Origin: a virus
Lineage: Duplodnaviria; Caudoviricetes
Virus record (IMG/VR): IMGVR_UViG_3300042446_001590
Location: 1 to 54,791 of that record
Direction: 5' to 3' (one strand)
Length of the DNA stretch: 54,791 nucleotides
Part shown: piece by piece, positions 22,374 through 49,223 of the stretch
Layout: each line of letters begins with the position of its first letter
Position numbering within the stretch: the first letter of the stretch is position 1
Position numbers and translations under genes: made by a program
The notes under the pieces: generated by a model
Databases searched by the model: none
What the model was told of the DNA's origin: nothing
Seen by the model: the letters and a program-made list of their open reading frames with translations, nothing else

Positions 22374-22634
22374 ATGTTAGTTATAAAAAGATATACAGCT
22401 TCATGGTGTGGACCATGTCAAATGCTATCGCCAATAATGGCAGAATTACAAAACGAAAACAGTAATGTTAGCTTCATTACTGTAGACGTAGATCAAAATG
22501 CAGAAGAAGCCAAAATATCAAATGTGCGTGGAGTACCAACGGTTATGTTCCTAAAAAATGGACAAGAAGTACATCGTTTTTCAGGTGTACAACCAAAACA
22601 GGTTATCGCCAATTTGATCAAACAATATTCCTAA
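22374..22634 (+). CDS. trxA: Thioredoxin
   Basis: WCGPC active site and 'VPT' cis-Pro loop. Confidence 0.95.
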   Translation: MLVIKRYTASWCGPCQMLSPIMAELQNENSNVSFITVDVDQNAEEAKISNVRGVPTVMFLKNGQEVHRFSGVQPKQVIANLIKQYS

Positions 22635-22655: not shown

Positions 22656-24509
22656 ATGAACGTAGAACAAAGCATTTTGTCGGATATTACTACCTACCTT
22701 AAGTACGCGAAGTATAATCCAGAAAAACAAAGAAGAGAAGTATGGGGTGAATTAGTTGACAGAAATAAGTCAATGCATTTAAAGAAATTCCCTCAATTAA
22801 GTGAAGAAATAGAATGGGCCTATAAATTTGTTTATGACAAAAAAGTATTACCTTCTATGCGTTCAATGCAATTCGCTGGAAAGCCAATTGAAATTAACAA
22901 CACAAGAGTATTTAACTGCTCTTATTTACCAATCGATGATTTAGCATCATTTTCTGAAATTATGTTCTTATTACTTTCAGGATGTGGAGTAGGCTATTCA
23001 GTACAACAACATCATATTGAGAAATTACCTGAAGTTAGAAAACCATTAAAATCTAAAAGATATTTAGTTGGTGATTCAATTGAAGGATGGGCTGACGCAG
23101 TTAAAGTATTAATGAAAGCCTACCTAAGAGGAGGACCAGCGCCATTATTTGACTTTAGAGATATTCGTCCTAAAGGTGCATCATTGATTACTGTAGGTGG
23201 TAAAGCACCAGGTCCAGAGCCATTAAAAATTGCTTTAATCCACGTACAATCAATATTAGATAGAAAAACAGATGGAGAGAAATTAACATCAGTAGAATGT
23301 CACGATATTATTTGCCATTTAGCAGACGCTGTATTATCAGGCGGTATTAGAAGAGCAGCATTAATCGCTTTATTTAATTTAGATGATGAAAATATGTTGA
23401 CTTGTAAGTTTGGTAACTGGTGGGAAGAAAATCCTCAACGCGGTAGAGCAAACAATACAGCAGTATTAATTAATTCTAAAATTGAAAAAGATGTATTTTT
23501 AGGATTATGGAAGAAAATTGAATTAAGTAACAGTGGAGAACCAGGATTTATTTTCTCAAACGATAAAGACGCTGGTACTAACCCATGTGCTGAAATTAAC
23601 TTAAAGCCAAATCAATTCTGTAATTTATGTGAAGTAAATGCTTCAACAATTGAATCACAAGAAGATTTAAATGAAAGAGTTAAAGCAGCAGCGTTCATTG
23701 GAACATTACAAGCATCATATACTGATTTCCATTATTTAAGAGATGTTTGGAAAAAAACAACAGAAAAAGAAGCATTATTAGGTATCGGAATGACAGGTAT
23801 CGCTTCAGGAACTGTATTTAAATATAGTTTAAAAGAAGCAGCTAAAATAGCTGTTGAAGAAAATGCTAGAGTAGCAGATGTAATCAAAATCAATAAAGCA
23901 GCTCGTATCACTACAGTTAAACCATCAGGTACTACATCATTAGTATTAGGAACTTCAAGTGGTATCCACGCATGGCACGATGATTTCTATTTAAGAAGAA
24001 TTCGCTTAGGTAAAAACGAAGCATTATATACTTACTTAGCAATTAATCACCCAGAATTATTAGAAGATGATTTCTTCAAACCACATATTCAAGCGATTGT
24101 AACTATTCCTCAACGTGCACCAGAAGGCGCTATTACTCGTACTAAAGAAACAGCATTCGAATTATTAGAGCGTATTAAGAAATTCAATAAAGAATGGATT
24201 AAACCAGGACATAAGAAAGGATCTAACATGCATAACGTTTCAGCTACAGTAAATATCAAACAAGATGAGTGGGAACCAGTAGGAGAGTGGTTATGGGAAA
24301 ATAAACAGTATTTCACTGCATTATCATTCTTGCCTGAAGATTTAGGTACATATACTCAAGCACCATTCGAATCAATTGATGAGGCTACATTTAATGATAG
24401 AGTTCAACATTTACACTTATTAGATTTATCTAAAGTAGTAGAAATGGATGACATGACAGCATTAATGGATCAAGCAGCTTGTGCAGGTGGGGCATGCGAA
24501 GTAGTTTAG
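22656..24509 (+). CDS. nrdJ: Ribonucleotide reductase, probably class II (adenosylcobalamin, monomeric type)
   Basis: 'FNCS', 'GGIRRAA', 'NPCAEI', 'CNLCE', 'TVKPSGT', C-terminal redox pair 'CAGGAC'; no beta subunit in the window. Confidence 0.85.
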   Translation: MNVEQSILSDITTYLKYAKYNPEKQRREVWGELVDRNKSMHLKKFPQLSEEIEWAYKFVYDKKVLPSMRSMQFAGKPIEINNTRVFNCSYLPIDDLASFSEIMFLLLSGCGVGYSVQQHHIEKLPEVRKPLKSKRYLVGDSIEGWADAVKVLMKAYLRGGPAPLFDFRDIRPKGASLITVGGKAPGPEPLKIALIHVQSILDRKTDGEKLTSVECHDIICHLADAVLSGGIRRAALIALFNLDDENMLTCKFGNWWEENPQRGRANNTAVLINSKIEKDVFLGLWKKIELSNSGEPGFIFSNDKDAGTNPCAEINLKPNQFCNLCEVNASTIESQEDLNERVKAAAFIGTLQASYTDFHYLRDVWKKTTEKEALLGIGMTGIASGTVFKYSLKEAAKIAVEENARVADVIKINKAARITTVKPSGTTSLVLGTSSGIHAWHDDFYLRRIRLGKNEALYTYLAINHPELLEDDFFKPHIQAIVTIPQRAPEGAITRTKETAFELLERIKKFNKEWIKPGHKKGSNMHNVSATVNIKQDEWEPVGEWLWENKQYFTALSFLPEDLGTYTQAPFESIDEATFNDRVQHLHLLDLSKVVEMDDMTALMDQAACAGGACEVV

Positions 24510-24847
24510 TAGAAAATATACATTACTATAAAGAAGGAGATAGGGTGGTTTTTACCACCCTTTTTCACATTCAACGTGGTCAATGTTGTGGGAATGGGTG
24601 TAGGAACTGTCCTTATATCCCAAAACACTTAAAAGGAAATTTGGAACTTAAAACAGAATTTATTAAATTTAAACATATGAATTTAGAAGAGTTAAATAAG
24701 ATGAAAAAAGAGGCTGAAGAGCTAAGTAATATGAAAGACCAAATGTCTGCCGTTGAACTACAAGCTAAAGCCTTAGAACTAACCAATAGATTAGAAGAAA
24801 TATTGGGTTCTATAATTAAGGTTCCTAAAGAAGAAGATAATGAGTAA
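24494..24847 (+). CDS. Cys-rich DUF5522-like domain in frame with a small coiled-coil ORF (internal start 24677)
   Basis: 'RGQCCGNGCRNCPY' motif; internal promoter before in-frame ATG 24677 (MNLEELNKMKKE...). Confidence 0.55.
   Translation: MRSSLVENIHYYKEGDRVVFTTLFHIQRGQCCGNGCRNCPYIPKHLKGNLELKTEFIKFKHMNLEELNKMKKEAEELSNMKDQMSAVELQAKALELTNRLEEILGSIIKVPKEEDNE
24542..24565 (+). terminator. Intrinsic terminator after nrdJ, inside the DUF5522-like ORF
   Basis: AGGGTGGT-TTTT-ACCACCCT followed by TTTT. Confidence 0.7.
24640..24671 (+). promoter_or_regulatory. Bacteroidota-type promoter 5 nt before ATG 24677
   Basis: TTTG 24640-24643, 20 nt, TAAATTTA 24664-24671. Confidence 0.6.
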
Positions 24848-25373
24848 AAAACGTTTATACGTTAGTTCTGAAGATGCTTGGATGTATATTCAAGCACCAA
24901 AAAACATGGGACATACTGCCACTCACTATACTAGAGTACCAAGCATTGATCCTAAATACCCAAGTGGAGACGGATGGGAAGATGTAATTTATCTTCATGA
25001 ACCAATACTAGACCCTTCAGGTGCTATCCGTAAACCAGAATGGATATATGTTTTAGTTAATGTATCTATGCATGGTATGGTTAAAGTAGGAATGACTACT
25101 AATACAGTAGAAGAACGTGCTAAAGAAATCAATGCTGCTACTGGCGTTCCTACACCTTGGATACCAGTATTTAAATTTAAATGTTATGGCTCTCGTTATT
25201 TAGAGAAAGAAGTTCATGATCATTTACATCAATATAGAGTAGCAAACAATAGAGAAATGTTCAGTACAGATGCTATGACAGCTCAAAAAGTAATAGAAAA
25301 ACTAGGCGTTAACTATGCTAATGCATTGTATGTAGCTACTGAATTAAAACAAGATTTGGAAAATCAAAATTAA
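24840..25373 (+). CDS. T5orf172/GIY-YIG-like domain protein
   Basis: 'IYVLVN.SM.GMVKVGMT...EERAKEI..ATGVPTP...LEKEVH..L...R....REMF'. Confidence 0.8.
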   Translation: MSKKRLYVSSEDAWMYIQAPKNMGHTATHYTRVPSIDPKYPSGDGWEDVIYLHEPILDPSGAIRKPEWIYVLVNVSMHGMVKVGMTTNTVEERAKEINAATGVPTPWIPVFKFKCYGSRYLEKEVHDHLHQYRVANNREMFSTDAMTAQKVIEKLGVNYANALYVATELKQDLENQN

Positions 25374-25393: not shown

Positions 25394-25873
25394 ATGGCAA
25401 GATACATCTCAACAAAAACATTCGACAACTATTCAGTTGCGATTAGACAATGGAAAGCACAGCATTCACACTGTCAATTATTACATGGTTATGGAATCTA
25501 CTTCAAAGTATGGTTCGCATCTAACCAACCAGATCTAGACAAGCAATTAGATGAAATGAATTGGATTGTTGACTTTGGAGGATTTAAAACTAAACCAGTA
25601 GGAAACGGATTAAAAGATTGGATGGACCATATGTGGGATCATACAGTATTAATTGAAAAAGATGATCCGTATGCTGATATATTTGTACAAATGGAACAAA
25701 TGGGATTAGCTAAAGTTCATTTAATGGATAAAATGGGCTGTGAGTCATTAGCTAAATTAGTATCAGATAAATTTAACGAAGTATTATCTAATACAGATGG
25801 TGCTAGATGTAAAGTAATTAAAGTAGAGTGTTTCGAACACGGTAAAAATTCATCAATATTTGAAGCAGAATAA
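25394..25873 (+). CDS. queD: 6-carboxytetrahydropterin synthase QueD
   Basis: 'HCQLLHGY', 'WIVDFG', 'WDHTVL', 'E.LAK'; cluster context. Confidence 0.88.
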   Translation: MARYISTKTFDNYSVAIRQWKAQHSHCQLLHGYGIYFKVWFASNQPDLDKQLDEMNWIVDFGGFKTKPVGNGLKDWMDHMWDHTVLIEKDDPYADIFVQMEQMGLAKVHLMDKMGCESLAKLVSDKFNEVLSNTDGARCKVIKVECFEHGKNSSIFEAE

Positions 25874-25874
25874 T

Positions 25875-26672
25875 ATGAAAATTAGTCATGAAGTTCCTTT
25901 ATCATTATTAAAATCAAGTAGATTATTTAATGATTACGATTATTGTTTACCTCACTTATTAGATAAACATGAAGAATACAAAGAATATTTTTTAGAAGGA
26001 CAAACATTGCCTCAAAAGCGTTTTGTTATCATGGATAATGGTTTGTTTGAAGGTGTAACTCACACTGAAAAAGATTTAATTGAAAAAATTAATCTAATTA
26101 AACCAGATATCTTTATTGTTCCTGATGAATGGAATGACACAGCACTTACCCACAGAAATGCTAAGTATTGGATGAATGTAATTAAAGAACAACTACCTAA
26201 AGAAACTGAATTGATGGTAGTAATGCAAGGGCATACTTTAGGTGATTTTATGAATCTATACAACCAATGTGCTGCTTTAGGATATACACACTTTGCATTT
26301 AATCATTCATCTATATATTATCAACATGATGGATACCATCCAAATCTATTAGTAAATCAAATGATGAATAGAATTTATATAATTTCAAGACTATATAAAG
26401 AAAAAATCATTAAAGATAGCCATTATGTCCACTTATTAGGAGCATCATTACCACAAGAATTCATGTATTATAGAGAACCAGAATTTGCATTTATTAAATC
26501 TGTAGATACATCATCTCCAATTATAAATGGTATTTTAGAGATACCATATGAAGATTATGGTTTATTAACTAAACCTAAAAACAAAATTGAAGAATTTATG
26601 GAAGGTGATTGGTCAAAGCAAATTGGACATTTAACTCACAATATTCACAAATTTAAAAAATTTATAAAATAA
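25875..26672 (+). CDS. TGT/DpdA-like deazaguanine transglycosylase-fold protein (likely start 25875)
   Basis: 'IMDNGLFE', 'VPD', 'VMQG', 'VHLLG', 'SVDTSSP' mirror the TGT/DpdA DSGxF...QG...HxLG...SxDS motifs; adjacent to queD. Confidence 0.65.
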   Translation: MKISHEVPLSLLKSSRLFNDYDYCLPHLLDKHEEYKEYFLEGQTLPQKRFVIMDNGLFEGVTHTEKDLIEKINLIKPDIFIVPDEWNDTALTHRNAKYWMNVIKEQLPKETELMVVMQGHTLGDFMNLYNQCAALGYTHFAFNHSSIYYQHDGYHPNLLVNQMMNRIYIISRLYKEKIIKDSHYVHLLGASLPQEFMYYREPEFAFIKSVDTSSPIINGILEIPYEDYGLLTKPKNKIEEFMEGDWSKQIGHLTHNIHKFKKFIK

Positions 26673-26685
26673 ATTAAACAACAAC

Positions 26686-27078
26686 ATGGCACAAACACTC
26701 ACATCATGTACTACAACATTGGGACATTCAGGTACAACAACAGGAACAGCGTACTTTCAACCAAGTACAGGAACAATATCATCAGGTACATATATTAGTG
26801 GTGGTGATATTTCTAGTTTTACAGTACCAAATTTAACAACATCAAATTTAACAATTTCATCAATTAACCAAAACGCAATTATGCAAAACAAAGTAGCAGT
26901 GTTCAAAGTAACACGTAATGACAAAAACGAAATTACATCAACTGAATTCATTAAAGAAATGTGGATTCAAACTAAAAACAATCAATCAGTAGAATTTGAA
27001 GTAGCTAGAGATAAAGACTTAGCTAAGTATAAAGCTGAAGATTTATCTATTAGAACAATCTATACAGTAACATTCTAA
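26686..27078 (+). CDS. Hypothetical protein with Ser/Thr-rich N-terminal half
   Basis: 130 aa; low-complexity N-terminus, globular C-terminus from 'MQNKVAVFKV'. Confidence 0.55.
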   Translation: MAQTLTSCTTTLGHSGTTTGTAYFQPSTGTISSGTYISGGDISSFTVPNLTTSNLTISSINQNAIMQNKVAVFKVTRNDKNEITSTEFIKEMWIQTKNNQSVEFEVARDKDLAKYKAEDLSIRTIYTVTF

Positions 27079-27079
27079 A

Positions 27080-27742
27080 ATGAAAAAAATCGTATTCTGT
27101 TTACCTGGAAGAGAGTTTAGTGGTAGATTTCTATCATGTTGGACTGAGTTAGTATACGCTTGCTTATCGCAAGGTATTCAACCTATAATGTCTCAACAAT
27201 ACTCACCCTTACTATATTACGTTCGTAATATGTGCTTAGGAGGAGATAACTTAGCAGGTATCAAACAGGTACCATTCCAAGGTAAACTAGATTATGATTA
27301 TATAATGTGGATTGATTCAGACATTGTATTCACACCCGATCAATTCTTTAAGTTAATAGACAACGATAAAGATATTTCATCAGGTTTGTATATGATGGCT
27401 GACAATACCCATTATGCTACAGTTGAAAATTGGGATGATGAGTTCTTTCAAAAGAATGGACATATGCAATTCGTAAACAGAGAGATACTATCTAAGAAGA
27501 AAGATTTATTTAAAGCTGACTATACAGGATTTGGATGGATACTAATGAAGAAAGGCGTATTTGAATCTTTAGAATATCCTTGGTTTCAACCAATGTGGAC
27601 TGAATATGAAACAGATGGAAAGATTATTAGAGATTTCTCAATGGAAGACGTAGCCTTCTGTAGAATGATTAAAGAAAAAGGCTTTGATGTCTGGATTGAT
27701 CCTACAATAGTGGTAGGGCACGAAAAAATGGTTATATTATAA
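27080..27742 (+). CDS. GT-A fold glycosyltransferase-like protein
   Basis: 'WIDSDIVF' DxD motif, 'GFGWILMKKGVFE', 'EDVAFC', 'VGHEK'. Confidence 0.75.
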   Translation: MKKIVFCLPGREFSGRFLSCWTELVYACLSQGIQPIMSQQYSPLLYYVRNMCLGGDNLAGIKQVPFQGKLDYDYIMWIDSDIVFTPDQFFKLIDNDKDISSGLYMMADNTHYATVENWDDEFFQKNGHMQFVNREILSKKKDLFKADYTGFGWILMKKGVFESLEYPWFQPMWTEYETDGKIIRDFSMEDVAFCRMIKEKGFDVWIDPTIVVGHEKMVIL

Positions 27743-27751
27743 AAAAAACAA

Positions 27752-27934
27752 ATGGCAAAATTACAAAAAATTGAAACTACTCATTACATTTATGAGTACG
27801 AATTAAGTGAAGATGAATTAGCACTATATATTAGTGATCCTGATACATTTTGGGAAGATTTTAGCGATGAATGGAATGATCCATATATGGATGTAGATTC
27901 AACTCAACCAGAAATTAACTTTTTAGAAGAATAA
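27752..27934 (+). CDS. Small, highly acidic protein
   Basis: 60 aa, very D/E-rich with aromatic residues. Confidence 0.55.
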   Translation: MAKLQKIETTHYIYEYELSEDELALYISDPDTFWEDFSDEWNDPYMDVDSTQPEINFLEE

Positions 27935-27939
27935 ATAAA

Positions 27940-28758
27940 ATGAAAAAACAAGCAGTATTATCACTAAGCGGAGGAATGGATAGCTCTAGCTTACTGCTTC
28001 ATCTACTCGCCAATGGCTATGAAGTAACATCATTATCCTTTGACTATGGTCAAAAACACAATGTCGAATTAGAACGAGCTAAAGATTTAGTTAGCTATTT
28101 AAATTCACAATGTACAGAAAATAACTGTTATGGTGGATGTGAAGTTAAACATCAAGTAATTACTTTAGATGGTTTATCTCAATTATTAAATTCATCATTA
28201 GTATCTGGTGGTTCAGAAGTACCTGAAGGTCATTATGCTGAAGAAAATATGAAAGCAACTGTAGTGCCTAATCGTAATAAAATATTTAGTTCAATTATTC
28301 AAGCAGTTGCATTATCAGTTGCTGAACAAAAGAATACTGAATGTGTAATTGCTATGGGTATACACGCAGGTGACCATGCTATATATCCTGACTGTAGACA
28401 AGAGTTTCGTGATATCGATTATGAAGCGTTTAAAGCTGGTAATTGGGGTGCTGAGAAAGTAACATATTATACTCCGTATTTAGAAGGTGATAAATACACT
28501 ATATTAGAGGATGGCGCTAAGTGTTGCAAAATACTAGGCCTTGATTTTAACGCAGTATATAGCCGAACTAATACGTCTTATAAGCCATACCCGTCAGGCA
28601 ACTCAGATTATAAATCAGCATCATCAGTTGAACGTGTTGAAGCATTTATTAAATTAGGTCGCCCAGATCCAGTTCAATATGAAGACGAGACAGGTCTAGT
28701 GACATGGGAACACGTAGTAAATGAAGTAACTAAAGTATTAGAAAGTCATGAAAAATAG
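27940..28758 (+). CDS. queC: 7-cyano-7-deazaguanine synthase QueC (variant lacking the C-terminal zinc cysteines)
   Basis: 'SGGMDS', 'FDYGQKH..E', 'VPNRN', 'YPDCR'. Confidence 0.92.
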   Translation: MKKQAVLSLSGGMDSSSLLLHLLANGYEVTSLSFDYGQKHNVELERAKDLVSYLNSQCTENNCYGGCEVKHQVITLDGLSQLLNSSLVSGGSEVPEGHYAEENMKATVVPNRNKIFSSIIQAVALSVAEQKNTECVIAMGIHAGDHAIYPDCRQEFRDIDYEAFKAGNWGAEKVTYYTPYLEGDKYTILEDGAKCCKILGLDFNAVYSRTNTSYKPYPSGNSDYKSASSVERVEAFIKLGRPDPVQYEDETGLVTWEHVVNEVTKVLESHEK

Positions 28759-28966
28759 AAAACAACATAAAATGAATGTGGGAAAAGAATCACATAAGGA
28801 AATTGACTTTAATAAACTTCCTGATCCTAAATTACACCAACGTGTTAGTTTCTTTAAATCAGGAATTAGAATAGCAGGTTATATTACTTTACCTTTTAAC
28901 TTAGCTATAGGAGCTATTATACTTGTATTAAGTGAGTTAATTGGTATTATAGAAGAGTTAGTATAA
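28748..28966 (+). CDS. Small membrane protein
   Basis: Hydrophobic C-terminal half 'SGIRIAGY...AIILVLSELIGIIEELV'. Confidence 0.55.
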   Translation: MKNRKQHKMNVGKESHKEIDFNKLPDPKLHQRVSFFKSGIRIAGYITLPFNLAIGAIILVLSELIGIIEELV

Positions 28967-28970
28967 TAAA

Positions 28971-29002
28971 TTTGGAAAGGCAAAAATAGTTTATTAAATT
29001 CA
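28971..29002 (+). promoter_or_regulatory. Bacteroidota-type promoter for the HTH gene
   Basis: TTTG 28971-28974, 20 nt, TAAATTCA 28995-29002. Confidence 0.65.
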
Positions 29003-29026
29003 AACAACAAATAAAATAAAAAAGTT

Positions 29027-29233
29027 ATGAAATTAAATCGCACAGCAAAACAAGCATTCTACAGTGCTAGAAGAAGAGATGGTGATTCTGCTAGATTAGC
29101 AGAGATGAGTGGATACTCAACCTCTCACGTTACTAACGTTTTAAATGGTCACCGTAATGTTACGGATACCTTAGCAAACGCAATGTATAACATTTCTAGA
29201 CGTAGATTGAAAAACAGCCAAGTAGCTGCTTAA
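29027..29233 (+). CDS. Small basic helix-turn-helix DNA-binding protein
   Basis: 'ARLAEMSGYSTSHVTNVLNGHR' XRE-like HTH; Arg-rich. Confidence 0.7.
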   Translation: MKLNRTAKQAFYSARRRDGDSARLAEMSGYSTSHVTNVLNGHRNVTDTLANAMYNISRRRLKNSQVAA

Positions 29234-29243
29234 GCAAAAACCC

Positions 29244-29280
29244 AATACCCTCTATTTTACATAGGGGGTATTTTCTATTT
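29244..29280 (+). terminator. Intrinsic terminator after HTH gene
   Basis: AATACCCTCTAT-TTTAC-ATAGGGGGTATT followed by TTCTATTT. Confidence 0.7.
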
Positions 29281-29299
29281 AAACAACAAACAATAAAAT

Positions 29300-30070
29300 A
29301 TGGAGCGCATATCTGATTACAATAAAAAAATTCAAGTAATTGAAATTTATCCTTGTGTACAAAGCGAAGGCAGTAGACAAGGAAGACCTACAGTAGCTAT
29401 TAGAACAACAGGCTGTACTCACAGATGTTGGTTTGGTGAAGGTGGATGGTGTGATTCTTGGTACACAAGTATTCATCCTGAAAAAGGTAAATTTACATTT
29501 AATGACATCGTTAAAATGTATGATGAAAATCCTCACATTAAAGAAATGATGTTAACAGGTGGTGCACCTACAATGCATCCAGTATTAGTAAACGAATTAA
29601 CACATTTTGCAAATGAAAGAGGTATTCTCATCACTATGGAAACTGAAGGTAGTCACTTTGTTGAGACTGATTTTCCTATCGGTCTCTTATCTATTAGTCC
29701 TAAGTTTAGCAATAGCGTTCCTAGGGTTGGGATTCTTACTCCACTTGGGAAAGAAGTGGATCAAAAGTTTGTGGACCAACATAACAAATACCGTCTTAAC
29801 ATTCCTGAAATTAAAAAAATGATCGAATTTCATTCTGATTATCATTTAAAACCAGTATGGGATGGTACAGAAGAAAACTTAGCTGAAATTGAAGCATTTA
29901 GAGTTGAATTAGGTATCCCTAAAAACAAAACATGGATTATGCCCGCTGGTGATACAGCAGAAGAATTAACTAGAATGTATCCAATTTCAATTGAAATGTG
30001 TACTAGAGAAGGTTATAACTGGACTGGTAGAGATCATATTATAGCTTACGGACAAAAGAGAGGAGTGTAG
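29300..30070 (+). CDS. queE: 7-carboxy-7-deazaguanine synthase QueE (radical SAM)
   Basis: 'VQSEG...G.PTV.IRTTGC...C...WCDS', 'LTGG.P', 'ETEG', 'SISPK'. Confidence 0.92.
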   Translation: MERISDYNKKIQVIEIYPCVQSEGSRQGRPTVAIRTTGCTHRCWFGEGGWCDSWYTSIHPEKGKFTFNDIVKMYDENPHIKEMMLTGGAPTMHPVLVNELTHFANERGILITMETEGSHFVETDFPIGLLSISPKFSNSVPRVGILTPLGKEVDQKFVDQHNKYRLNIPEIKKMIEFHSDYHLKPVWDGTEENLAEIEAFRVELGIPKNKTWIMPAGDTAEELTRMYPISIEMCTREGYNWTGRDHIIAYGQKRGV

Positions 30071-30072
30071 TT

Positions 30073-30582
30073 ATGAGAATACTATTTGGAACATCAGCAT
30101 TAGATACTGCTGTAAAAAAAATAGCCAAACATATTACAGAACAAAAACACCCATCACCACCAGTAATGATCTGTGTTTTAAATGGAGCATTTATGTTCTT
30201 TACTGATTTAGTTAAGGAAATAAAAATGGATTGTGAAATCGATTTTATTAGAGTTAAATCATATGAGGGTAGAGAACAGTATGATATTAAAATACTTAAA
30301 GATATTGAATCAAATATTGATGGTAAAAATATCTACATTATAGATGATATTCTAGATTCAGGCAATACAATGAAGGCGCTTATTAAGCATTTATCTCATA
30401 GACACAAACCACGTTCAATCACACCTATTGTATTGTTTAAACGCTATGATAATGAATGGCCTGTAGCGCATGGTATTGAATTAAAAGATGAAACATGGAT
30501 CCATGGTTATGGATTAGACAATGAAAAAGGTTTAGGAAGAAATCTTCCTTATATACTTGGAGATTTAACAGAAGTTGAGTAA
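30073..30582 (+). CDS. hpt: Hypoxanthine/guanine phosphoribosyltransferase-like protein
   Basis: 'VLNGAFMFFTDL', 'KSY', PRPP loop 'IIDDILDSGNT', 'GYGLD....GRNLP'. Confidence 0.88.
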   Translation: MRILFGTSALDTAVKKIAKHITEQKHPSPPVMICVLNGAFMFFTDLVKEIKMDCEIDFIRVKSYEGREQYDIKILKDIESNIDGKNIYIIDDILDSGNTMKALIKHLSHRHKPRSITPIVLFKRYDNEWPVAHGIELKDETWIHGYGLDNEKGLGRNLPYILGDLTEVE

Positions 30583-30591
30583 ATTTAAATT

Positions 30592-31314
30592 ATGGAAAAT
30601 AAAAGACGTAAAACAGCTGATATTGAAAAATTAGAGACAGCACAAGCAGGTTTTGCAAATGGTATTTCATTGCAATTAAAAGACCTAATTAATAAAGGAC
30701 AACATCGTTCTTTAAATGACAAAGAAAAGAAAAAAATTATTACTAACGCTGAAAAAGCATATGGTAAATTTTTAACTGCATTAGGTGTAGATTGGGAAAA
30801 TGACCCAAACAGTATGGAAACACCTCGTCGTGTATCTAAGGCATATGTAAATGACTTATGGAGAGGTAGATATGAAATACCAACTGAAATTACAGCATTC
30901 CCTAGTGATGGATACAATGGTATTGTTTTAGAACGAGACATTCCAGTAACAAGTATGTGTTCTCATCATCACCAAGCTATCTTAGGTAATGTTCATATTG
31001 CTTATATTCCTGGAGTTGATGGTAAAGTAATTGGTTTAAGTAAATTAAATCGTATTGTAGAACACTTTGGACGTAGAGGTGCAATTCAAGAACAATTAAC
31101 AGTAGCTATTCACAATGCAATTAATGAAATTTGTGAAGGTAATATTGGAGTGATGGTTGTAGTTCATGCAGGTCACCAATGTGTATCTTGCAGAGGCGTT
31201 AAACATCAAGGCGCTAGTATGGTTACTAGTGAAGTATCAGGTGTGTTTGCTGACCACACAAGAACAGCTAAAATTGAAGTATTAGAAATGTTAAAATTAA
31301 AAATATGTTGCTAA
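30592..31314 (+). CDS. folE: GTP cyclohydrolase I
   Basis: 'ETPRRV', 'SMCSHH', 'GLSKLNR', 'IQEQLT', 'HQCVSCRGV'. Confidence 0.95.
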   Translation: MENKRRKTADIEKLETAQAGFANGISLQLKDLINKGQHRSLNDKEKKKIITNAEKAYGKFLTALGVDWENDPNSMETPRRVSKAYVNDLWRGRYEIPTEITAFPSDGYNGIVLERDIPVTSMCSHHHQAILGNVHIAYIPGVDGKVIGLSKLNRIVEHFGRRGAIQEQLTVAIHNAINEICEGNIGVMVVVHAGHQCVSCRGVKHQGASMVTSEVSGVFADHTRTAKIEVLEMLKLKICC

Positions 31315-31802
31315 CAGGACATCAAGTATTCCAGTATATGGAAATGAATGGTACGAATTACCATAAAGTAAATCAAGTAGGTATTGATTTATCAGTTAAA
31401 AAAATCGAAAAAATAATTGGTGGAGTTATGGTGTTTCAAGAAAAAACCGTAGTTAACCCTGAATTATTTACTAATGTTGAACTTACAAACATTGAAGGTA
31501 GAAAAATGTGGCGCTTAGAAAGTGGTACTTATGCACTAACATTTAATGAAGGTGTTAAGATTCCAGCTAACGCTACTGGTTTTATTACATCGCGTTCTTC
31601 AATCTATAGAGGCGGTGCAAAAATTAATTCCCCAATTTGGGACCCAGGATTTGAAACTAGAGAAATGGGTACTACAATGTTTTTAAACGCAGAAACTATA
31701 TTCATCGAAGAAAATGCTCGCGTTTGTCAATTTTACATGATTACCAATCCAATTCCACAAGAATTGTACAACGGTCAATTCCAAGGTAAGACAAATTACT
31801 AG
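31305..31802 (+). CDS. dUTPase / dCTP deaminase superfamily protein
   Basis: 'GIDL', 'RSS.YRGG', 'WDPGF', 'RVCQF', 'YNGQFQG'. Confidence 0.8.
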   Translation: MLLTGHQVFQYMEMNGTNYHKVNQVGIDLSVKKIEKIIGGVMVFQEKTVVNPELFTNVELTNIEGRKMWRLESGTYALTFNEGVKIPANATGFITSRSSIYRGGAKINSPIWDPGFETREMGTTMFLNAETIFIEENARVCQFYMITNPIPQELYNGQFQGKTNY

Positions 31803-31822: not shown

Positions 31823-31852
31823 AGGGTTCGGGATTCTTCCCGAGCCCTTTTT
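31823..31852 (+). terminator. Intrinsic terminator ending the deazaguanine cluster
   Basis: AGGGTTCGGGA-TTCT-TCCCGAGCCCT followed by TTTT. Confidence 0.85.
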
Positions 31853-36219: not shown

Positions 36220-38802
36220 ATGTATCAATCAGCCTATTACGACAGAACAGATTATTCTTATTATATTAGAGATGATAAAACAGGATGGCATAATTTCAAA
36301 TATACCCCTGAATTATATCAAATCGCTCCAGATGGTGTACTAGAAACACTAGACGGTAAACGTGCTACTCCAATTAAAAAATATAATTGGAAGGATATTT
36401 CATTATATGAACAAGACGTTGATAAATTAACTCGAGTATTAATCGATTTATATAAAGACGATGATAATGGACCAACACATCAAAATGTAGTTTATTTCGA
36501 TATTGAGTGTGAAATTGGTGGAGCATTAACTACAGAATACATCAAATCAGCACCGATGAAAATGACATCGGTTTCAGCTTACGATCAAACAACACAAAAA
36601 TATTATTGTTATATATTAGATGAAAAACAACAACTAGATCCTATCGACAGTGATAATAAAGTAGTTGTTCCATTTAAAACAGAAGCAGAAATGCTAGCCA
36701 AATTCCTAGATCTATGGGAAGAATTAGATCCTACTATCATTACAGGATGGAATAGTGGATTTTTTGACGTACCTTACATGTACTATAGAATGTGTAATGT
36801 ATTAGGCAAAACTGAAGCATCTCGTTTATCCCCTCTACGCAAATTAAATTTCACTGAATGGGATATATCACAGCCTATTGAATTAGGTGGTATTAATCAT
36901 TTAGATTATATGTTATTATTTAAAAAATATATAACTAAACAAGAACCATCATATAAATTAGGTGATGTTGGAGAAAAATATGTAAAATTAGGTAAAGTTG
37001 AGTATGAAGGTAACCTAGATAAATTATTTAGAGACGATATAAACACATTCATTCAATATAACCTAAGGGATGTTGAGATTATTATTGAATTGGAGAAAAA
37101 GCTTAAATTCATTGATTTAACGGTAGCTATCTGTCATTTATGTCATGTACCCTACGAACAAATATACTTATCAACAGTATTAAATGATGGAGCTATATTA
37201 ACATATTTAAAACGTCAAGGTATAGTATCACCTAATAAACCAACTACAATAAATCCATTATTAAAAGACAGTAATAATGATGAATATGCTGGTGGTTATT
37301 TAAAAGATCCAATTCCTGGATTATATGAGTGGGTTATTGACTTAGACTTTACATCACTATATCCTTCTATTATTCGTTCACTTAATATAGGAATTGAAAC
37401 ATTAATAGGTAGAATTGTTAATTCAGACAAATATGACAATCAATGGACATATGCTGAGTTAGTTAATATGGATCCTAATGATTTAATTACTATTGAAAAA
37501 TTAAGACCCGATTTCACATTAGCTAGAAATCAAGTACCTGTAAGGAAAGTAATCAATATGATTGAATCTAATATTTGGGTTACTGCGGCTTCAGGAGCTA
37601 TATTTCAAACAGACAAATCATCTGTAGTATGTGAAGTATTAACAGATTGGTTTAATAAACGTAAGCATTATAAAAAATTAATGTCTCAATCATACAAATC
37701 AGGAGATAAGAATTTAGGTGATCATTACCATCGATTACAACATGCTTATAAAATTAAATTAAATGACGTTTATGGTTGCTATGCTATTAACGGATGGAGA
37801 TATACTGATGGACATAAAATCATTTCATCTGCTATCACATTAACAGGACAACGAGTAACTCAAGAATCCATTAAGTTTGTAAACAAATGGATGAATGATA
37901 AATTAAATACTAAAAATAAAGACTATGTAGTTACTTCAGATACTGACTCATTATTTATCCAGGTTAAGGATCTACTAATAAGTAAAGGTATTGATTTAAA
38001 TAATAAAGAGGAATGCGTTAGAGTAACACTCGAATTAGCAACTGAAATTCAAAAAGCATCTAATGAATATATAGGTAAATTTGCTATGACTGCGTTTAAT
38101 ATTCCTAATAATAGAGAACATTATTTTGAGTTAAAACAAGAGGTAGTTATTGAAAGGGGATATTTTGCTGGTAAACGTCGATATGCTATGGCTATCGTAA
38201 ATAAAGAAGGTGTACCTGTAGAAGAAATGGTAATGATGGGATTGGATCTAATGAAATCAAATATGCCACCACTATATAAAAAGTTTGGACAAAATCTATT
38301 AGTTGAAATAATGGCTGGTAAACCTAAACAAGAAATAGATAAGAGTATTATTGACTTTAAATCATCATTAAACCAATTACCTTGGGCTGATATTGCTAAA
38401 CCTACAGGAGTAAAACAAATTAGTGCTTATGTTGCTAAACGTCCATCGCCTGGTGAGATATTTAGTGAATTAAAATTAAAATGCCCAATCAATACTAGAG
38501 CCGCTGTGTATTATAACGATATCCTTAGATTTAAACGTTTAGATAAAAAATATTCATGTTTTACTGAAGGTGATAAGATGAAGTATGTATCTTTAAAACC
38601 TAATCCATTTGAAATTAACGTAATAGGATTTAATGGTAACGACCCTGAATTTATTACTAGTTTTATAGACAAATATGTTGATAGAGAAGATGCGTTTAAC
38701 TCTGTATTATTAAATAAATTAAAAGGTGTTTATGAAGATATTGGGTGGGGCAATGATTTCCCTGTATTAGATGCAAAAATATCTAGATTCTTTAAATTTT
38801 AA
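36220..38802 (+). CDS. Family B DNA polymerase
   Basis: Exo 'FDIEC', 'GWNS..FD', 'YN..D'; pol 'DFTSLYPSII', 'KIKLN.VYG', 'SDTDS', 'KRRY'. Confidence 0.95.
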   Translation: MYQSAYYDRTDYSYYIRDDKTGWHNFKYTPELYQIAPDGVLETLDGKRATPIKKYNWKDISLYEQDVDKLTRVLIDLYKDDDNGPTHQNVVYFDIECEIGGALTTEYIKSAPMKMTSVSAYDQTTQKYYCYILDEKQQLDPIDSDNKVVVPFKTEAEMLAKFLDLWEELDPTIITGWNSGFFDVPYMYYRMCNVLGKTEASRLSPLRKLNFTEWDISQPIELGGINHLDYMLLFKKYITKQEPSYKLGDVGEKYVKLGKVEYEGNLDKLFRDDINTFIQYNLRDVEIIIELEKKLKFIDLTVAICHLCHVPYEQIYLSTVLNDGAILTYLKRQGIVSPNKPTTINPLLKDSNNDEYAGGYLKDPIPGLYEWVIDLDFTSLYPSIIRSLNIGIETLIGRIVNSDKYDNQWTYAELVNMDPNDLITIEKLRPDFTLARNQVPVRKVINMIESNIWVTAASGAIFQTDKSSVVCEVLTDWFNKRKHYKKLMSQSYKSGDKNLGDHYHRLQHAYKIKLNDVYGCYAINGWRYTDGHKIISSAITLTGQRVTQESIKFVNKWMNDKLNTKNKDYVVTSDTDSLFIQVKDLLISKGIDLNNKEECVRVTLELATEIQKASNEYIGKFAMTAFNIPNNREHYFELKQEVVIERGYFAGKRRYAMAIVNKEGVPVEEMVMMGLDLMKSNMPPLYKKFGQNLLVEIMAGKPKQEIDKSIIDFKSSLNQLPWADIAKPTGVKQISAYVAKRPSPGEIFSELKLKCPINTRAAVYYNDILRFKRLDKKYSCFTEGDKMKYVSLKPNPFEINVIGFNGNDPEFITSFIDKYVDREDAFNSVLLNKLKGVYEDIGWGNDFPVLDAKISRFFKF

Positions 38803-39603: not shown

Positions 39604-39894
39604 ATGAAAATAAAACCATTGCACAACCACGTTGTGATCAAACAACAAGACGAAACAGAAACCATGTACGGGAACATTATTGTCCCAGATGCTGGTAAAG
39701 AAAAACCATTAATGGGCGAAGTAGTAGCAGTAGGACCTGGTATTGTCAACATGAATGGAGCTTTAATCCCAAACACATTAGAAGTAGGCCAAAAAGTATC
39801 ATTTCCTTCATTTGGTGGACAAAAACTAAGTATAGGTGGAGAAGATTATCTTATCTACAAAGAACAAGATATATTTGCTATTTTAGAGGATTAA
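39604..39894 (+). CDS. groES: Co-chaperonin GroES
   Basis: 'IKPLHNHVVI', 'IIVPD..KEKP..GEVVAVGPG', 'E.DI.AI'. Confidence 0.95.
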   Translation: MKIKPLHNHVVIKQQDETETMYGNIIVPDAGKEKPLMGEVVAVGPGIVNMNGALIPNTLEVGQKVSFPSFGGQKLSIGGEDYLIYKEQDIFAILED

Positions 39895-39931
39895 TAATTA
39901 ACATAGTATACTAAATAATAAAACAAAATAA

Positions 39932-41554
39932 ATGAGTAAGATAATCGTTTTCGACAGAGAAGCAAAAGAAAAATTAAAAGCTGGTATTGATAAAGTCAAT
40001 AAAGCAGTTTCAACAACAATGGGGCCTTTTGGTCGTAATGTTTTAATTGAAAAAGAATACGGACAAGTTCAATCAACTAAAGATGGTGTTTCAGTAGCTA
40101 AAACTATTACATTAGAAGACCCGATTGAAAACATGGCCGCTACAGTAATTAAACAAGCCGCTACTAAAACAGTAGACGCTGCTGGTGATGGAACAACAAC
40201 ATCAACTGTATTAGCTCATTCAATTGCTATTCAAGCATTAGAAGCAACAGCATACGCCTCTACAAACGCAACACAAGTTAAACGTGGAATTGAGCAAGCT
40301 GTTAAAGAAGTAGTTGATGAATTAAAAACAATGTCAACTGACATTACTGATGAGAAACAAATTAAACAAATTGCTACATTATCAGCAAATGGTGATGAAG
40401 AAATTGGTAATTTAGTTGCTACAGCATTAGATAAAGTAGGTAGAGATGGAGTTGTAACTGTAGAAGAATCACGTTCAGGTGAAACATCACTTGAAGTAGT
40501 AGAAGGTTTACAATTCGACAGAGGATATAAATCACCATATTTTGTTACAGATAACAACACTATGTCTTCAGTATTAACTGAACCATTATTGTTATTAGTA
40601 GATGGTAGAATAAGTCAAGTAAAAGATTTATTACCTATCTTAGAATCTGTATCTCAACAACAAAAATCATTATTAGTTATTGCTGAAGATTTTGGGGATG
40701 AAGTATTATCTACATTAGTAGTAAATAAAATGAGAGGTATTTTAAAAGTAGCTGCTGTTAAAGCACCTGATTTTGGAGACCGTAGAACATTAATCTTAGA
40801 AGATATTGCTGCTTTAACTGGTGGTACTGTAGTTTCATCTACTAAAGGTATGAAGTTAGACAAATTCAATAAAGATTGGTTTGGACAAGCACGTACTGCA
40901 ACTGTAGGTAAAGACACAACTACTGTAGTTGATGGTAAAGGAGATACTGAAATTATTGAGGCTCGTATTTTAGAATTAAAAGCACAAATTGATAAGTCAT
41001 CATCTCCATACGAAATTGAAAAATTACAAGAACGTTTAGCCAAAATGGTAGGCGGCGTTGCAATCATTAACGTAGGTGGTGGTACAGAAATCGAAATGAA
41101 AGAGAAAAAAGATCGTTTAGACGATGCTTTACAAGCTACAAAAGCTGCTCTTGAAGAAGGTATTCTACCAGGTGCTGGTGTAGCATTATTACATGCTAGA
41201 AATGCTATTTCAAAACGTGAAAATACTGATTTTGGTACAGGTAAAAAGATTGTATTTGAAGCTTGTAGTAAACCATTTGAACAAATCTTAATTAACGCTG
41301 GTGAAAAACCAAGCCAATGGGAAATGAGCATCTATGTAGATTCAAACGTTAGATCAGCAGTTCCTAATATTGAAGCAAATCAATTAGTTGATGCATTCGA
41401 ATCTGGTATTATTGATCCAACTAAAGTAGTACGTTCAGCATTACAAAATGCAGCTGCAGCCGCAGTAACATTATTAATGACAGAATGTGTTATTCATGAA
41501 AAACCATCTGATAAAAAAGATGATTCAAATCCATTAGCTGGATTAGGAATGTAA
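39932..41554 (+). CDS. groEL: Chaperonin GroEL
   Basis: 'GP.GRNV', 'TKDGVSVA', 'AGDGTTT', 'FDRGY.SPYF', 'KAPDFGDRR', 'GIIDPTKV'. Confidence 0.97.
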   Translation: MSKIIVFDREAKEKLKAGIDKVNKAVSTTMGPFGRNVLIEKEYGQVQSTKDGVSVAKTITLEDPIENMAATVIKQAATKTVDAAGDGTTTSTVLAHSIAIQALEATAYASTNATQVKRGIEQAVKEVVDELKTMSTDITDEKQIKQIATLSANGDEEIGNLVATALDKVGRDGVVTVEESRSGETSLEVVEGLQFDRGYKSPYFVTDNNTMSSVLTEPLLLLVDGRISQVKDLLPILESVSQQQKSLLVIAEDFGDEVLSTLVVNKMRGILKVAAVKAPDFGDRRTLILEDIAALTGGTVVSSTKGMKLDKFNKDWFGQARTATVGKDTTTVVDGKGDTEIIEARILELKAQIDKSSSPYEIEKLQERLAKMVGGVAIINVGGGTEIEMKEKKDRLDDALQATKAALEEGILPGAGVALLHARNAISKRENTDFGTGKKIVFEACSKPFEQILINAGEKPSQWEMSIYVDSNVRSAVPNIEANQLVDAFESGIIDPTKVVRSALQNAAAAAVTLLMTECVIHEKPSDKKDDSNPLAGLGM

Positions 41555-41555
41555 G

Positions 41556-42170
41556 ATGATTGAAAATGTACATTACATTTGGATAGGGAATAACAATATA
41601 CCTAATAAGTATTTACTTAACTTTAAAAAGTGTGTTGATTTAAATAGACAGTTTTCATTCACTATATGGAAAAATGAAGATTGTTTACAATTAATAAGAG
41701 AATACGATTTAGAAGATATATTTACTTCCCTATCCTTTATATGTAGGTGTAATTTATTAAAATATCTTATACTCCATAAATTTGGAGGAATATACACTGA
41801 TTTTGATATTACATGGAAACAACCATTTGCTAAAATAATAAATGATTTTAATTTTCCTGCTGTAGATTTAATCTTAACATCTACAAATGAGAATACATTA
41901 ATGGATGATCCATTTATAGTAAGTAAACCCAACATATTAGGAAATTGTATTGCATATTGCAAAAGAAGAACCAAATTAAAATATGATGGTGAAATATACG
42001 AACGAACAAAACAATTAGTTACACATAAATTAGAACCATTTGGCCCTTTTGGATTAACAGAATGGTTAGAGTTTGATAAAGTTAACTATAGTCATTTCCC
42101 TCAGGCAATATTATTAGATAATAAAGGTTTTTTTGGAGTCCACGAACAAAGAAGCATTTGGAAGTTTTGA
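41556..42170 (+). CDS. DxD glycosyltransferase (GT32/OCH1-like)
   Basis: 'VHYIWIG', 'L.YLIL.KFGGIYTDFD'. Confidence 0.8.
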   Translation: MIENVHYIWIGNNNIPNKYLLNFKKCVDLNRQFSFTIWKNEDCLQLIREYDLEDIFTSLSFICRCNLLKYLILHKFGGIYTDFDITWKQPFAKIINDFNFPAVDLILTSTNENTLMDDPFIVSKPNILGNCIAYCKRRTKLKYDGEIYERTKQLVTHKLEPFGPFGLTEWLEFDKVNYSHFPQAILLDNKGFFGVHEQRSIWKF

Positions 42171-42200: not shown

Positions 42201-43115
42201 ATGAGCAAAAAACACACTCTTTGGATTGAAAAATTTAGATCTGAGAATCTAGAACAATATATTGGTAACGAGGATATTAAAAATCGTATTGCTGAATGTA
42301 TTAAAACTAATGATATACCCCATTTTATATTTGCTGGTACAGCAGGCACAGGTAAAACTACATTAGCTAAATTAATAGTTAAAAATATTAAATGTGACTA
42401 TTTATATTTAAATGCCAGCGATGAAAATGGTATTGATATGATTAGAGAAAAAGTAAAGGGCTTCGCATCATCAGCATCATTTAATCCTATTAAAGTTGTT
42501 ATATTAGACGAGGCTGATTTCTTAACTCAACCAGCACAAGCAGCATTACGTAATATTATTGAAGAATATTCATTAAATACTCGTTTTGTATTAACTTGTA
42601 ATTATATTGAACGTTTAATTGAACCTTTACAATCACGTTGTGAAATTAATAAATTAACACCTCCCTCTAAAAGTGAAGTAGCTAAACACGTTTGCACTAA
42701 TATTTTAGAAGCTGAAGGTGTTAGTTATGATTTAAAAGATGTAGCTCAAGTAATTAAACAATATTATCCTGATATTCGTTCTGTTATTAAGAATTTACAA
42801 GCAGGAACTAGAGATAATAAATTCACATTAGCGGCAGTAGACATATTCTGGTGTACTAAGATTTTAGATGTACTTAAAGCACCAACTAAAAATAGTTGGA
42901 TAGATATGAGACAAATTATTGCTGATGCTCAAGTAGATGATTATCAACCATTAATTGAATATCTATTTGAACATATCAGTACTTATGGAGCAGGTAACGA
43001 AGCATCAATCACAGTAGAATTAGATGAAACTCAATGGCGTTCTCGTTCAGTACCAGATAAAGAAATTAACATTGCCTCATTATTAGGTAAAATATTAAAC
43101 ATAATTAAAAAATGA
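42201..43115 (+). CDS. Clamp loader AAA+ subunit (gp44/RFC-like)
   Basis: 'LWIEKFR', 'GTAGTGKTT', 'LNASDE', 'LDEAD', 'LQSRC'. Confidence 0.93.
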   Translation: MSKKHTLWIEKFRSENLEQYIGNEDIKNRIAECIKTNDIPHFIFAGTAGTGKTTLAKLIVKNIKCDYLYLNASDENGIDMIREKVKGFASSASFNPIKVVILDEADFLTQPAQAALRNIIEEYSLNTRFVLTCNYIERLIEPLQSRCEINKLTPPSKSEVAKHVCTNILEAEGVSYDLKDVAQVIKQYYPDIRSVIKNLQAGTRDNKFTLAAVDIFWCTKILDVLKAPTKNSWIDMRQIIADAQVDDYQPLIEYLFEHISTYGAGNEASITVELDETQWRSRSVPDKEINIASLLGKILNIIKK

Positions 43116-47492: not shown

Positions 47493-47494
47493 TT

Positions 47495-49221: not shown

Positions 49222-49223
49222 AC

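Follow-up and report, generated by a model that had tools for sequence, protein, structure and literature searches.

The locus described here raises the question why a phage gene cluster for the synthesis and insertion of 7-deazaguanine bases contains a purine phosphoribosyltransferase (PRTase). The cluster lies in IMG/VR record IMGVR_UViG_3300042446_001590, a 54.8-kb fragment of a large myophage (the window, i.e. the whole stretch of DNA that was analysed), and its Hpt-like PRTase gene is wedged between queE and folE with gaps of 2 and 9 nucleotides (nt), respectively, as read from the sequence. The initial annotation of the window had proposed that the PRTase joins a deazaguanine base to phosphoribosyl pyrophosphate (PRPP) and thereby feeds a pre-replicative route to a modified deoxynucleoside triphosphate (dNTP), with the salvage of guanine released by base exchange as an alternative. 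We find that the linkage between the PRTase and the deazaguanine pathway is solid, and that the ordinary answer, recycling of guanine, is more likely than the nucleotide route. The core cluster is a further member of a published kind, the DpdA3 system as found in Flavobacterium phage immuto, Cellulophaga phage phiST and Campylobacter phage CP220, and the new part is the PRTase component.

The PRTase (169 aa) scored 75.1 bits against PF00156 (cut-off 26.3) and matched HGPRT/HGXPRT chains of the PDB over residues 7-161 (E 2.4e-25). With housekeeping Hpt (TIGR01203; PDB 4qri, 3acb and 1g9s) it has the fold family and the motifs along the whole length in common, but it stays below the equivalog level (TIGR01203, 120 versus 150 bits; PRK09162, 86 versus 181) and belongs to a clade of its own that lives inside que clusters. 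The elements IIDDILDSGNT, KSY, LFK, W-I-H-GYGLD and RN align with the corresponding positions of 4qri and 3acb, and 15 clade members show no variation in the catalytic-loop SY, in the PRPP motif DDIxD.G.T (third Asp included), in the Lys of LFK, in GYGLD or in RN. We take these positions to be the PRPP, Mg, N7 and O6 contacts seen in HGPRT structures, and a stacking aromatic residue is present as well. Judged by this alignment, the enzyme keeps every canonical position of a 6-oxopurine PRTase. Its relatives make up 1026 protein clusters, the top 120 of which are 52-64% identical (one is 99% identical) and have lengths of 135-180 aa, nearly all between 166 and 180, with several located on contigs of 150-173 kb. 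Cellular-type Hpts within the phage collection reach no more than 29-38% identity with the window PRTase, which is a member of a separate, large viral and metagenomic clade and not a recent capture from a host. A tblastn search of isolate phages with the Hpt-like protein recovered 18 records, several of which are short, unannotated or bacterial-named (Listeria, Staphylococcus, Salmonella, 'Bacteriophage sp.') and look host-derived. Since there was no DpdA3 phage among these 18 records, the linkage was tested in IMG/VR.

Two sets of loci were used: the best 80 of 345 IMG/VR relatives of the Hpt-like gene and the best 80 of at least 559 IMG/VR relatives of DpdA3. Both contain nearest relatives only, near-duplicates included, and have at least 6 contigs in common, so the counts given are counts of loci and not of independent events. 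One or more of QueC, QueD, QueE, FolE and DpdA3 were encoded in 78 of the 80 Hpt-like loci, the exceptions being L119, for which 645 bp of upstream sequence is all there is, and L141. QueE was found upstream of the Hpt-like gene in 59 of the 63 loci with room for it. The start of folE was located within 100 bp 3' of the Hpt-like gene in 44 of the 69 loci having at least 1.5 kb of room; in the other 25 it was found within 1.5 kb (11 loci), farther away (4) or not downstream (10). Of 51 loci, 39 have DpdA3 at most 8 kb upstream of the Hpt-like gene, and when four of the 12 Hpt-type loci without a nearby DpdA3 were searched record-wide it turned up in three, the fourth being a 14% fragment; every complete record searched for DpdA3 contained it. 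The Hpt-like PRTase is a genuine component of the deazaguanine machinery, and the connection between hpt and the que genes on which the initial annotation depended is borne out by the relatives. The stricter rule that the PRTase always follows FolE was dropped: it held in all five complete genomes first checked and failed in the sub-clade of G010, G011 and G012.

A second PRTase type occupies the same position in other DpdA3 phages. Out of the 80 DpdA3 loci, 24 have a complete folE, and in 22 of these at least 1 kb is available on either side. A PRTase gene is located at most 319 bp from folE in 18 of the 22, and the remaining four have none in the locus. Within the 18, the Hpt type lies just upstream of folE in four cases and a Gpt-like protein (131-138 aa) is encoded downstream in 14, whereas both together were never observed. 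The two types show only 28% identity over 65 residues, and the best PDB relatives of the Gpt-like PRTase are Sulfolobus GpT-1 and GpT-2, P. horikoshii 1vdm and E. coli XGPRT. Five complete relatives (CheckV 100%) each encode exactly one purine PRTase, beside their single folE; the additional PF00156 match seen in G003 belongs to a PRPP-synthetase-like protein. When a quick maximum-likelihood tree was built for DpdA3 (65 rows, 50 of them distinct; midpoint-rooted for drawing only), the labels Hpt, Gpt and none required at least five changes, with Gpt clades among Hpt clades and the 'none' rows inside one Gpt clade. Two distantly related PRTase classes interchange at the slot adjacent to folE, and the simplest activity common to both is the conversion of guanine, hypoxanthine or xanthine to the nucleoside monophosphate (NMP).

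The Gpt-like type was also recovered from isolate phages. In immuto it is gp211, encoded between queE and folE, and in phiST it is CGPG_00045. In 34 phage records a Gpt-like domain constitutes the N-terminal ~120 residues of a FolE of ~300 aa (VpKK5 and other Vibrio phages; PaMx25, NP1, JG012, JG054 and other Pseudomonas phages; phages of Stenotrophomonas, Xanthomonas, Variovorax and Sphingomonas). The domain keeps the RGG, VDDIxDSGxT and WxVFPWE elements and is not flagged by Pfam. The gene next after folE in VpKK5 and the Stenotrophomonas phage specifies a 'queuine tRNA-ribosyltransferase' of ~307 aa, which is a phage DpdA of the ordinary kind. In a Brevundimonas phage, 2 nt separate folE from an XPRT gene, and in PA5oct-like jumbo phages a Gpt-like gene is located beside a QueE-like gene. 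Leaving likely host fragments aside, the inspected Gpt-like phage matches are part of folE/que genes or adjoin them (the fusions, immuto, Brevundimonas and PA5oct), with the exception of phiST, whose PRTase adjoins a dNMP-kinase-like gene and a ribonucleotide reductase (RNR) gene and not DpdA3. VpKK5 belongs to the Queuovirinae by classification. For the measured members of this group a modification of only ~16-28% of G is reported, which in iggy was mapped at a GA motif (PMC10484667). By analogy with these relatives, the FolE-fusion phages would be partly modified as well. A dNTP route cannot explain such a pattern, which is partial and, in iggy, motif-bound.

The PRTase is accessory and dispensable to the DpdA3 system. 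A complete relative of 170 kb (G007) encodes DpdA3, QueC, QueE and FolE without any PRTase, and its slot after folE is taken by a GIY-YIG/NUMOD endonuclease gene (L081:14760-15410). Similarly, the isolate-phage search gave no match to either PRTase type in the Campylobacter phage records, and CP220 is reported to be fully substituted with dADG, the deoxynucleoside of 7-amido-7-deazaguanine (ADG; PMC10516641).

The gene that was initially annotated as resembling tRNA-guanine transglycosylase (TGT) or DpdA is predicted to encode a DpdA of the subfamily DpdA3, given its similarity to the immuto and CP220 proteins and its TGT-like fold. The product is 33% identical to immuto DpdA (gp206; E 2e-40, over 267 aa) and 34.8-36% identical, at a coverage of 97-99%, to a set of proteins from Campylobacter phages that includes CP220 gp056; phiST CGPG_00065 was not retrieved with the window protein as query at E 1e-3. 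An AlphaFold (AF2) model built from a 30-sequence alignment had a predicted local distance difference test score (pLDDT) of 94.7 and a predicted template modelling score (pTM) of 0.91, and the top 50 PDB matches that Foldseek returned for it were all TGTs (E 6.5e-9 to 1.2e-7, TMq 0.60-0.69, 11-16% identity). TGT proper is a full-length enzyme with a C-terminal zinc subdomain. The window protein gave no Pfam or NCBIfam match, the TGT family PF01702 included; with 265 aa it is ~100 residues shorter than the matched TGT chains (337-379 aa), and a CxCxxC zinc motif was not seen in its sequence. As probable start, ATG 25875 is preferred over TTG 25860 because the relatives align from MKISHE. QueD is encoded directly 5' and QueC, QueE and FolE 3' of the gene, and likewise in related loci. 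The subfamily was named by Cui, Hutinet et al. for immuto and CP220 homologues, and the DpdA3 phages CP220, phiST and immuto are reported to replace all G, while tests of DpdA3 in E. coli by the same authors were unsuccessful (PMC10516641). The initial annotation treated it as established that phage DpdA swaps the base into DNA after replication; for DpdA3, insertion after replication is a proposal of these authors (PMC10516641). Weak DpdA3-like matches (23-24% identity, 80-88% coverage, E ~1e-5) were also obtained in the 55-kb Bacillus subtilis phages BSP7 and BSTP5/8/10/12, where they carry unrelated or 'hypothetical' annotations.

When compared with known systems, the window resembles immuto, phiST and CP220 in combining FolE, QueD and QueE (and QueC) with a short TGT-like DpdA3, and a PRTase gene occurs in immuto and phiST as well, in immuto at the same place between queE and folE. 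The window PRTase, however, is of the Hpt type with its catalytic loop, versus a Gpt-like protein of 131-142 aa in immuto and phiST, and its dNTP pyrophosphatase is of the DCD family, versus MazG-like in these two phages. In addition, the window lacks QueF and DpdN (as in immuto) as well as DpdL (present in phiST), so that the base is probably preQ0 or ADG and not fdPreQ1 or 7-deazaguanine (DG); families of QueF, ArcS and amidotransferase gave no match in profile scans of the cluster, in line with the initial annotation. The phages with a Gpt-like mini-PRTase (VpKK5, PaMx25, NP1 and those of Stenotrophomonas, Xanthomonas and Brevundimonas) share with the window a 6-oxopurine-type PRTase that is tied to the deazaguanine pathway. 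Theirs is the other PRTase class, located downstream of folE or fused to it, whereas the Hpt type of the window lies upstream; in DpdA3 phages the Gpt-like type stands in for the Hpt type at the position next to folE. Outside the phages, the Streptomyces enzymes TubE (tubercidin; shown) and ToyH (toyocamycin; proposed) are purine-type PF00156 proteins encoded with FolE, QueD and QueE homologues, as in the window (PMC6112128), and would offer a model for the mechanism should the phage enzyme act on CDG or preQ0. A transglycosylase for nucleic acids is missing from their clusters, in which tailoring genes of the GMP-reductase, adenylosuccinate, Nudix or HAD kinds are found instead (10.64898/2026.04.15.718813). 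The window, in contrast, encodes DpdA3 and gave no match to these tailoring families. This comparison with TubE and ToyH concerns gene content only, and the main text of the TubE paper contains no residue-level data (PMC6112128).

Considering the above, we regard guanine salvage, i.e. the conversion of guanine and PRPP to GMP and further to GTP for FolE, as the best reading of the Hpt-like PRTase, with a probability of roughly 55%. FolE, QueD, QueE and QueC would produce a free 7-deazaguanine base from GTP, probably preQ0 or ADG because QueC is present and QueF is not. DpdA3 would then put this base in the place of guanine and release free guanine. The PRTase would convert the expelled guanine, together with guanine from degraded host nucleic acid, to GMP at the expense of PRPP, and the guanylate kinase and nucleoside-diphosphate kinase of the host would turn GMP into GTP, the substrate of FolE. 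Labelling work has made clear that two ring carbons of the deazapurine derive from the ribose of GTP, and therefore the loop would amount to the rebuilding of expelled guanine into deazaguanine at PRPP cost. The salvage would at the same time clear guanine, which is formed in the exchange reaction and competes with it. The gene identities, the conserved linkage, the interchange of PRTase classes and the dispensability are direct results, while guanine as the substrate, the recycling loop and the identity of the base are inferred from sequence. We favour salvage, which fits better than the pre-replicative route put forward initially, because of the canonical active site, the interchange of the two classes, the FolE fusion in a partly modified group and the dispensability of the PRTase.

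Several observations weigh against guanine salvage. The substrate is deduced from conserved positions by way of their roles in HGPRT structures, and the loop would rely on host enzymes, considering that guanylate kinase was found in none of the five complete relatives. The recurrent dNTP pyrophosphatases of DpdA3 clusters are not required by plain salvage. In a sub-clade (L137, L138, L139, L143, L144, L146 and L153) the Hpt-like gene occurs with queC/D/E and the dUTPase-like gene, and folE adjoins dpdA3 ~30 kb away (complete G010; incomplete G011 and G012). The neighbourhood therefore does not single out FolE: the commonest upstream neighbour is queE, the product of which, 7-carboxy-7-deazaguanine (CDG), is the substrate of TubE. 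TubE also shows that a purine-type PRTase can be CDG-specific (PMC6112128), and the full replacement of G, the ADG nucleoside reported in CP220-infected cells and the failed DpdA3 activity in E. coli would fit a step at the nucleotide level more easily (PMC10516641). Part of these observations speak for the route of the initial annotation, in which the enzyme is a deazapurine PRTase that joins preQ0, ADG or CDG to PRPP, after which kinases, the class II RNR and the family-B polymerase, both indeed encoded in the window, would bring about incorporation as a dNTP before or during replication and a genome-wide replacement. The precedent for such a PRTase is real, as TubE uses CDG and PRPP in vitro, ToyH was proposed to act on preQ0 and both are encoded with FolE/QueD/QueE homologues (PMC6112128), and PF00156 is listed for biosynthetic clusters of this kind (10.64898/2026.04.15.718813). 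The position of queE directly upstream, the RNR and thioredoxin (Trx) genes 5' and the dNTP pyrophosphatase gene 3' of the cluster, and a modified-dGTP route that was proposed earlier for Campylobacter phages (PMC6884629) point in the same direction. Nevertheless, we consider the deazapurine route unlikely and do not favour it, since two distant PRTase classes would each have had to gain a new specificity, and FolE fusions of the Gpt type occur in siphophages with an ordinary DpdA, from a group in which modification is partial and, in the one member mapped, motif-bound. All canonical 6-oxopurine positions are kept in the Hpt-like PRTase, including an Asp that presumably contacts N7 and would face the C7 substituent of a deazapurine. 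In addition, the complete G007 and the Campylobacter phages, CP220 among them, do without any such PRTase; the route would be redundant next to the DpdA3 that turned up in three of the four Hpt-type records searched for it, the fourth being a 14% fragment; and the tailoring genes of the Toy/Tub kind (GMP-reductase, adenylosuccinate, Nudix, HAD) are unmatched among the 64 open reading frames (ORFs) of the window.

Still less probable is a role as a general purine auxiliary gene, supplying GMP or IMP from the breakdown of host nucleic acid, with its position a matter of shared synteny. Large phages often carry genes of nucleotide metabolism, the window encodes a non-specific nuclease (43112-43693) besides RNR, thioredoxin and the dUTPase-like protein, and the PRTase of phiST has a dNMP-kinase-like gene and RNR rather than DpdA3 as neighbours. 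The link to que/folE, however, spans unrelated phage groups and different gene orders and extends to an in-frame fusion with FolE, either class can take the slot of the other, and, host-fragment-like records aside, none of the 18 Hpt-matching phage records is a que-lacking phage with a member of this clade. A broader idea, which we also hold to be rather doubtful, is that DpdA3 phages replace guanine at the nucleotide level before polymerisation. This might occur in either of two forms. The PRTase could make the deazaguanine ribonucleotide in a TubE-like manner, or the short DpdA3, lacking a zinc or nucleic-acid-binding subdomain, could swap the base on dGMP or dGTP supplied by the dNTP pyrophosphatase of the cluster, after which a phage NMP kinase would raise the product to the triphosphate and the PRTase would recycle the guanine. 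Hints in this direction are the replacement reported as 100%, the ADG nucleoside of infected cells and the lack of DpdA3 activity in E. coli (PMC10516641). Furthermore, dNTP pyrophosphatase families recur in or beside DpdA3 clusters, being of the DCD/dUTPase type in the window and many IMG/VR relatives and of the MazG/PRA-PH or dimeric-dUTPase (dUTPase_2) type in immuto (L001:11644-12168) and phiST (CGPG_00068), while in CP220 an HD domain fused to a P-loop kinase (L002:8883-9914) has this place; they could serve plain dUTP clearance or a dGTP-directed step. A small kinase of the AAA_28 type (annotated as thymidylate kinase) is encoded directly after DpdA3 in CP220 (gp057, L002:10834-11376) and two genes downstream of it in immuto (gp203, L001:13843-14367). 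It occurs once in each of the five complete IMG/VR relatives (L168-L172), far from DpdA3.

Phage DNA with 7-deazaguanines is an active topic, since the modification allows escape from restriction and CRISPR, and the published gene sets end at FolE, QueC/D/E, DpdA and tailoring enzymes. In the literature searched, with subscription papers and supplement PDFs outside that scope, we found nothing relevant on a deazaguanine or preQ0 PRTase in phage, and no mention of the Gpt-like PRTase that is linked or fused to FolE. None of the main texts of PMC10516641, PMC6884629 and PMC10484667 contains the term 'phosphoribosyl', and in one text supplement of PMC10516641 it appears solely in Pfam rows for a MazG-like protein. 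The purine PRTase constitutes a widespread and repeatedly recruited extra component, with Hpt-type, Gpt-type and FolE-fused forms. One GTP is spent per deazaguanine and one guanine is freed per exchange; if recycling is true, it would explain how the conversion of every G in a genome of 150-180 kb is affordable, and a competitor of the exchange reaction would be removed as well. If, on the other hand, the enzyme uses deazapurines, the post-replicative model for fully substituted genomes would fall. The question is directly testable, as immuto and phiST, which both encode the Gpt type, can be cultivated. The enzyme may also serve in making modified nucleotides.

The features of the cluster and its direct context are collected in Table 1.

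Table 1. Features in and around the deazaguanine cluster of the window
Feature	Positions	Strand	Evidence or remark
Thioredoxin (context)	22374..22634	+	PF00085 1.3e-22
Ribonucleotide reductase, class II-like (context)	22656..24509	+	PF02867 2.1e-10; PF21995 (B12-RNR insertion domain) 2.3e-4, below cut-off
T5orf172/MUG113-domain protein, probably mobile endonuclease-type insert, directly 5' of queD	24840..25373	+	PF10544 3.5e-15
QueD (6-carboxytetrahydropterin synthase)	25394..25873	+	PF01242 8.7e-10; phrog_2389 QueD-like 1.7e-32
DpdA3-type guanine transglycosylase (predicted)	25875..26672	+	Homology to immuto DpdA and CP220 gp056
orf130	26686..27078	+	Recurs after dpdA3/queC in relatives
GT-A-like putative glycosyltransferase	27080..27742	+	phrog_1574 1.8e-65 (unknown function); PF00535 E 0.008
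QueC (CDG to ADG/preQ0)	27940..28758	+	PF06508 7.1e-38; TIGR00364 115 bits, below cut-off
orf68, small helix-turn-helix-like protein	29027..29233	+	PF01381 E 0.005, weak; present in many related loci
Terminator-like hairpin inside cluster, 5' of queE	29244..29272	+	12-pair stem, 4 G-C pairs, T-rich tail
QueE (radical-SAM CDG synthase)	29300..30070	+	phrog_2076 1.1e-44; TIGR03365 2.9e-15
Hpt-like 6-oxopurine phosphoribosyltransferase	30073..30582	+	PF00156 75.1 bits; TIGR01203 120 bits (cut-off 150)
FolE (GTP cyclohydrolase I)	30592..31314	+	PF01227 2.7e-45
DCD-family dUTPase-like dNTP pyrophosphatase	31305..31802	+	PF22769 1.2e-11; PRK02253 95.8 bits (cut-off 130)
Intrinsic-terminator-like hairpin at cluster end	31823..31848	+	11-pair stem, 7 G-C pairs, then TTTTT
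Family-B polymerase (context)	36220-38802

The 64 window ORFs were scanned against family profiles. The window has a G+C content of ~0.31, carries nearly all genes on the + strand and specifies tail sheath, tube, baseplate, gp32-like, UvsX/RecA-like and DnaB-like proteins, a family-B polymerase and GroES/GroEL, and the phage is a large myophage related to phages of Bacteroidota. All genes that had been named in the cluster were recovered on the + strand where the initial annotation had placed them, in the order QueD, TGT-like, orf130, GT-A-like, QueC, two small ORFs, QueE, Hpt-like PRTase, FolE and DCD-family. The preQ0 pathway is complete, FolE, QueD, QueE and QueC being matched by PF01227, PF01242, phrog_2076/TIGR03365 and PF06508, respectively. 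None of the four enzymes reached the NCBIfam equivalog cut-off, as expected of divergent phage copies. The best PDB match of the DCD-family protein was 9w59, a 'probable dUTPase' (E 5.3e-12), and a DCD/dUTPase-like gene is found downstream of folE or the PRTase gene in many relatives. In a near-identity search of isolate phages with the cluster DNA, the sole match was to queE of immuto (84% nt identity over 316 bases), and therefore the isolate-phage collection holds no close cultured relative.

The strong terminator described at the 3' end of the cluster was found, but the cluster is not confirmed as a single unit, given the second terminator-like hairpin inside. A scan for sigma-70 promoters yielded 29 sites, fewer than the 48.3 +/- 6.5 in shuffled sequences; it lends no support to a promoter and is uninformative for this kind of host. 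The product of orf130 has an S/T/G-rich low-complexity N-terminus and, in an alignment of 20 sequences, a well conserved C-terminal domain of ~65 aa (MQNKVAVFKVTR...), and no Pfam, PHROG or NCBIfam family matched it at a meaningful score. The glycosyltransferase assignment of the GT-A-like protein is putative and the evidence weak, although the product falls in viral 'putative glycosyltransferase' clusters of the ESM Atlas (score 0.99). As a member of the pathway this gene was ruled out, being conserved in one of the 80 DpdA3 loci (L006).

Beyond the cluster, four more genes of glycosyltransferase families (Gly_transf_sug, two GT1 and one GT2) and a dTDP-sugar 3,5-epimerase gene are located 3' of the polymerase (41556-42170, 46035-49847 and 52928-53410), and the phage's own GroES and GroEL pair is encoded at 39604-41554. 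The complete DpdA3-phage relative G003 encodes its PRPP-synthetase-like protein and a nucleoside 2-deoxyribosyltransferase-like protein (L173:3738-4634 and L173:6022-6486) in a region with NADAR, macro, HAD and metallophosphatase genes, at a large distance from the que genes. Genes of the homing-endonuclease type shift places within the clusters of the window and its relatives; the T5orf172 gene, for instance, precedes queD in the window and lies between queC and orf68 in L010. Upstream of the cluster, the order Trx-RNR-DUF5522 is found in many relatives (L006, L010, L014, L062, L067, L071 and others). Finally, in many relatives (L098-L133 and others) the first few bases of the Hpt-like gene are shared with a small thioredoxin-like ORF (e.g. 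L099:7765-8004) and another such ORF is located directly 5' of queD (e.g. L099:5856-6101), while the only thioredoxin of the window is the one 5' of RNR.

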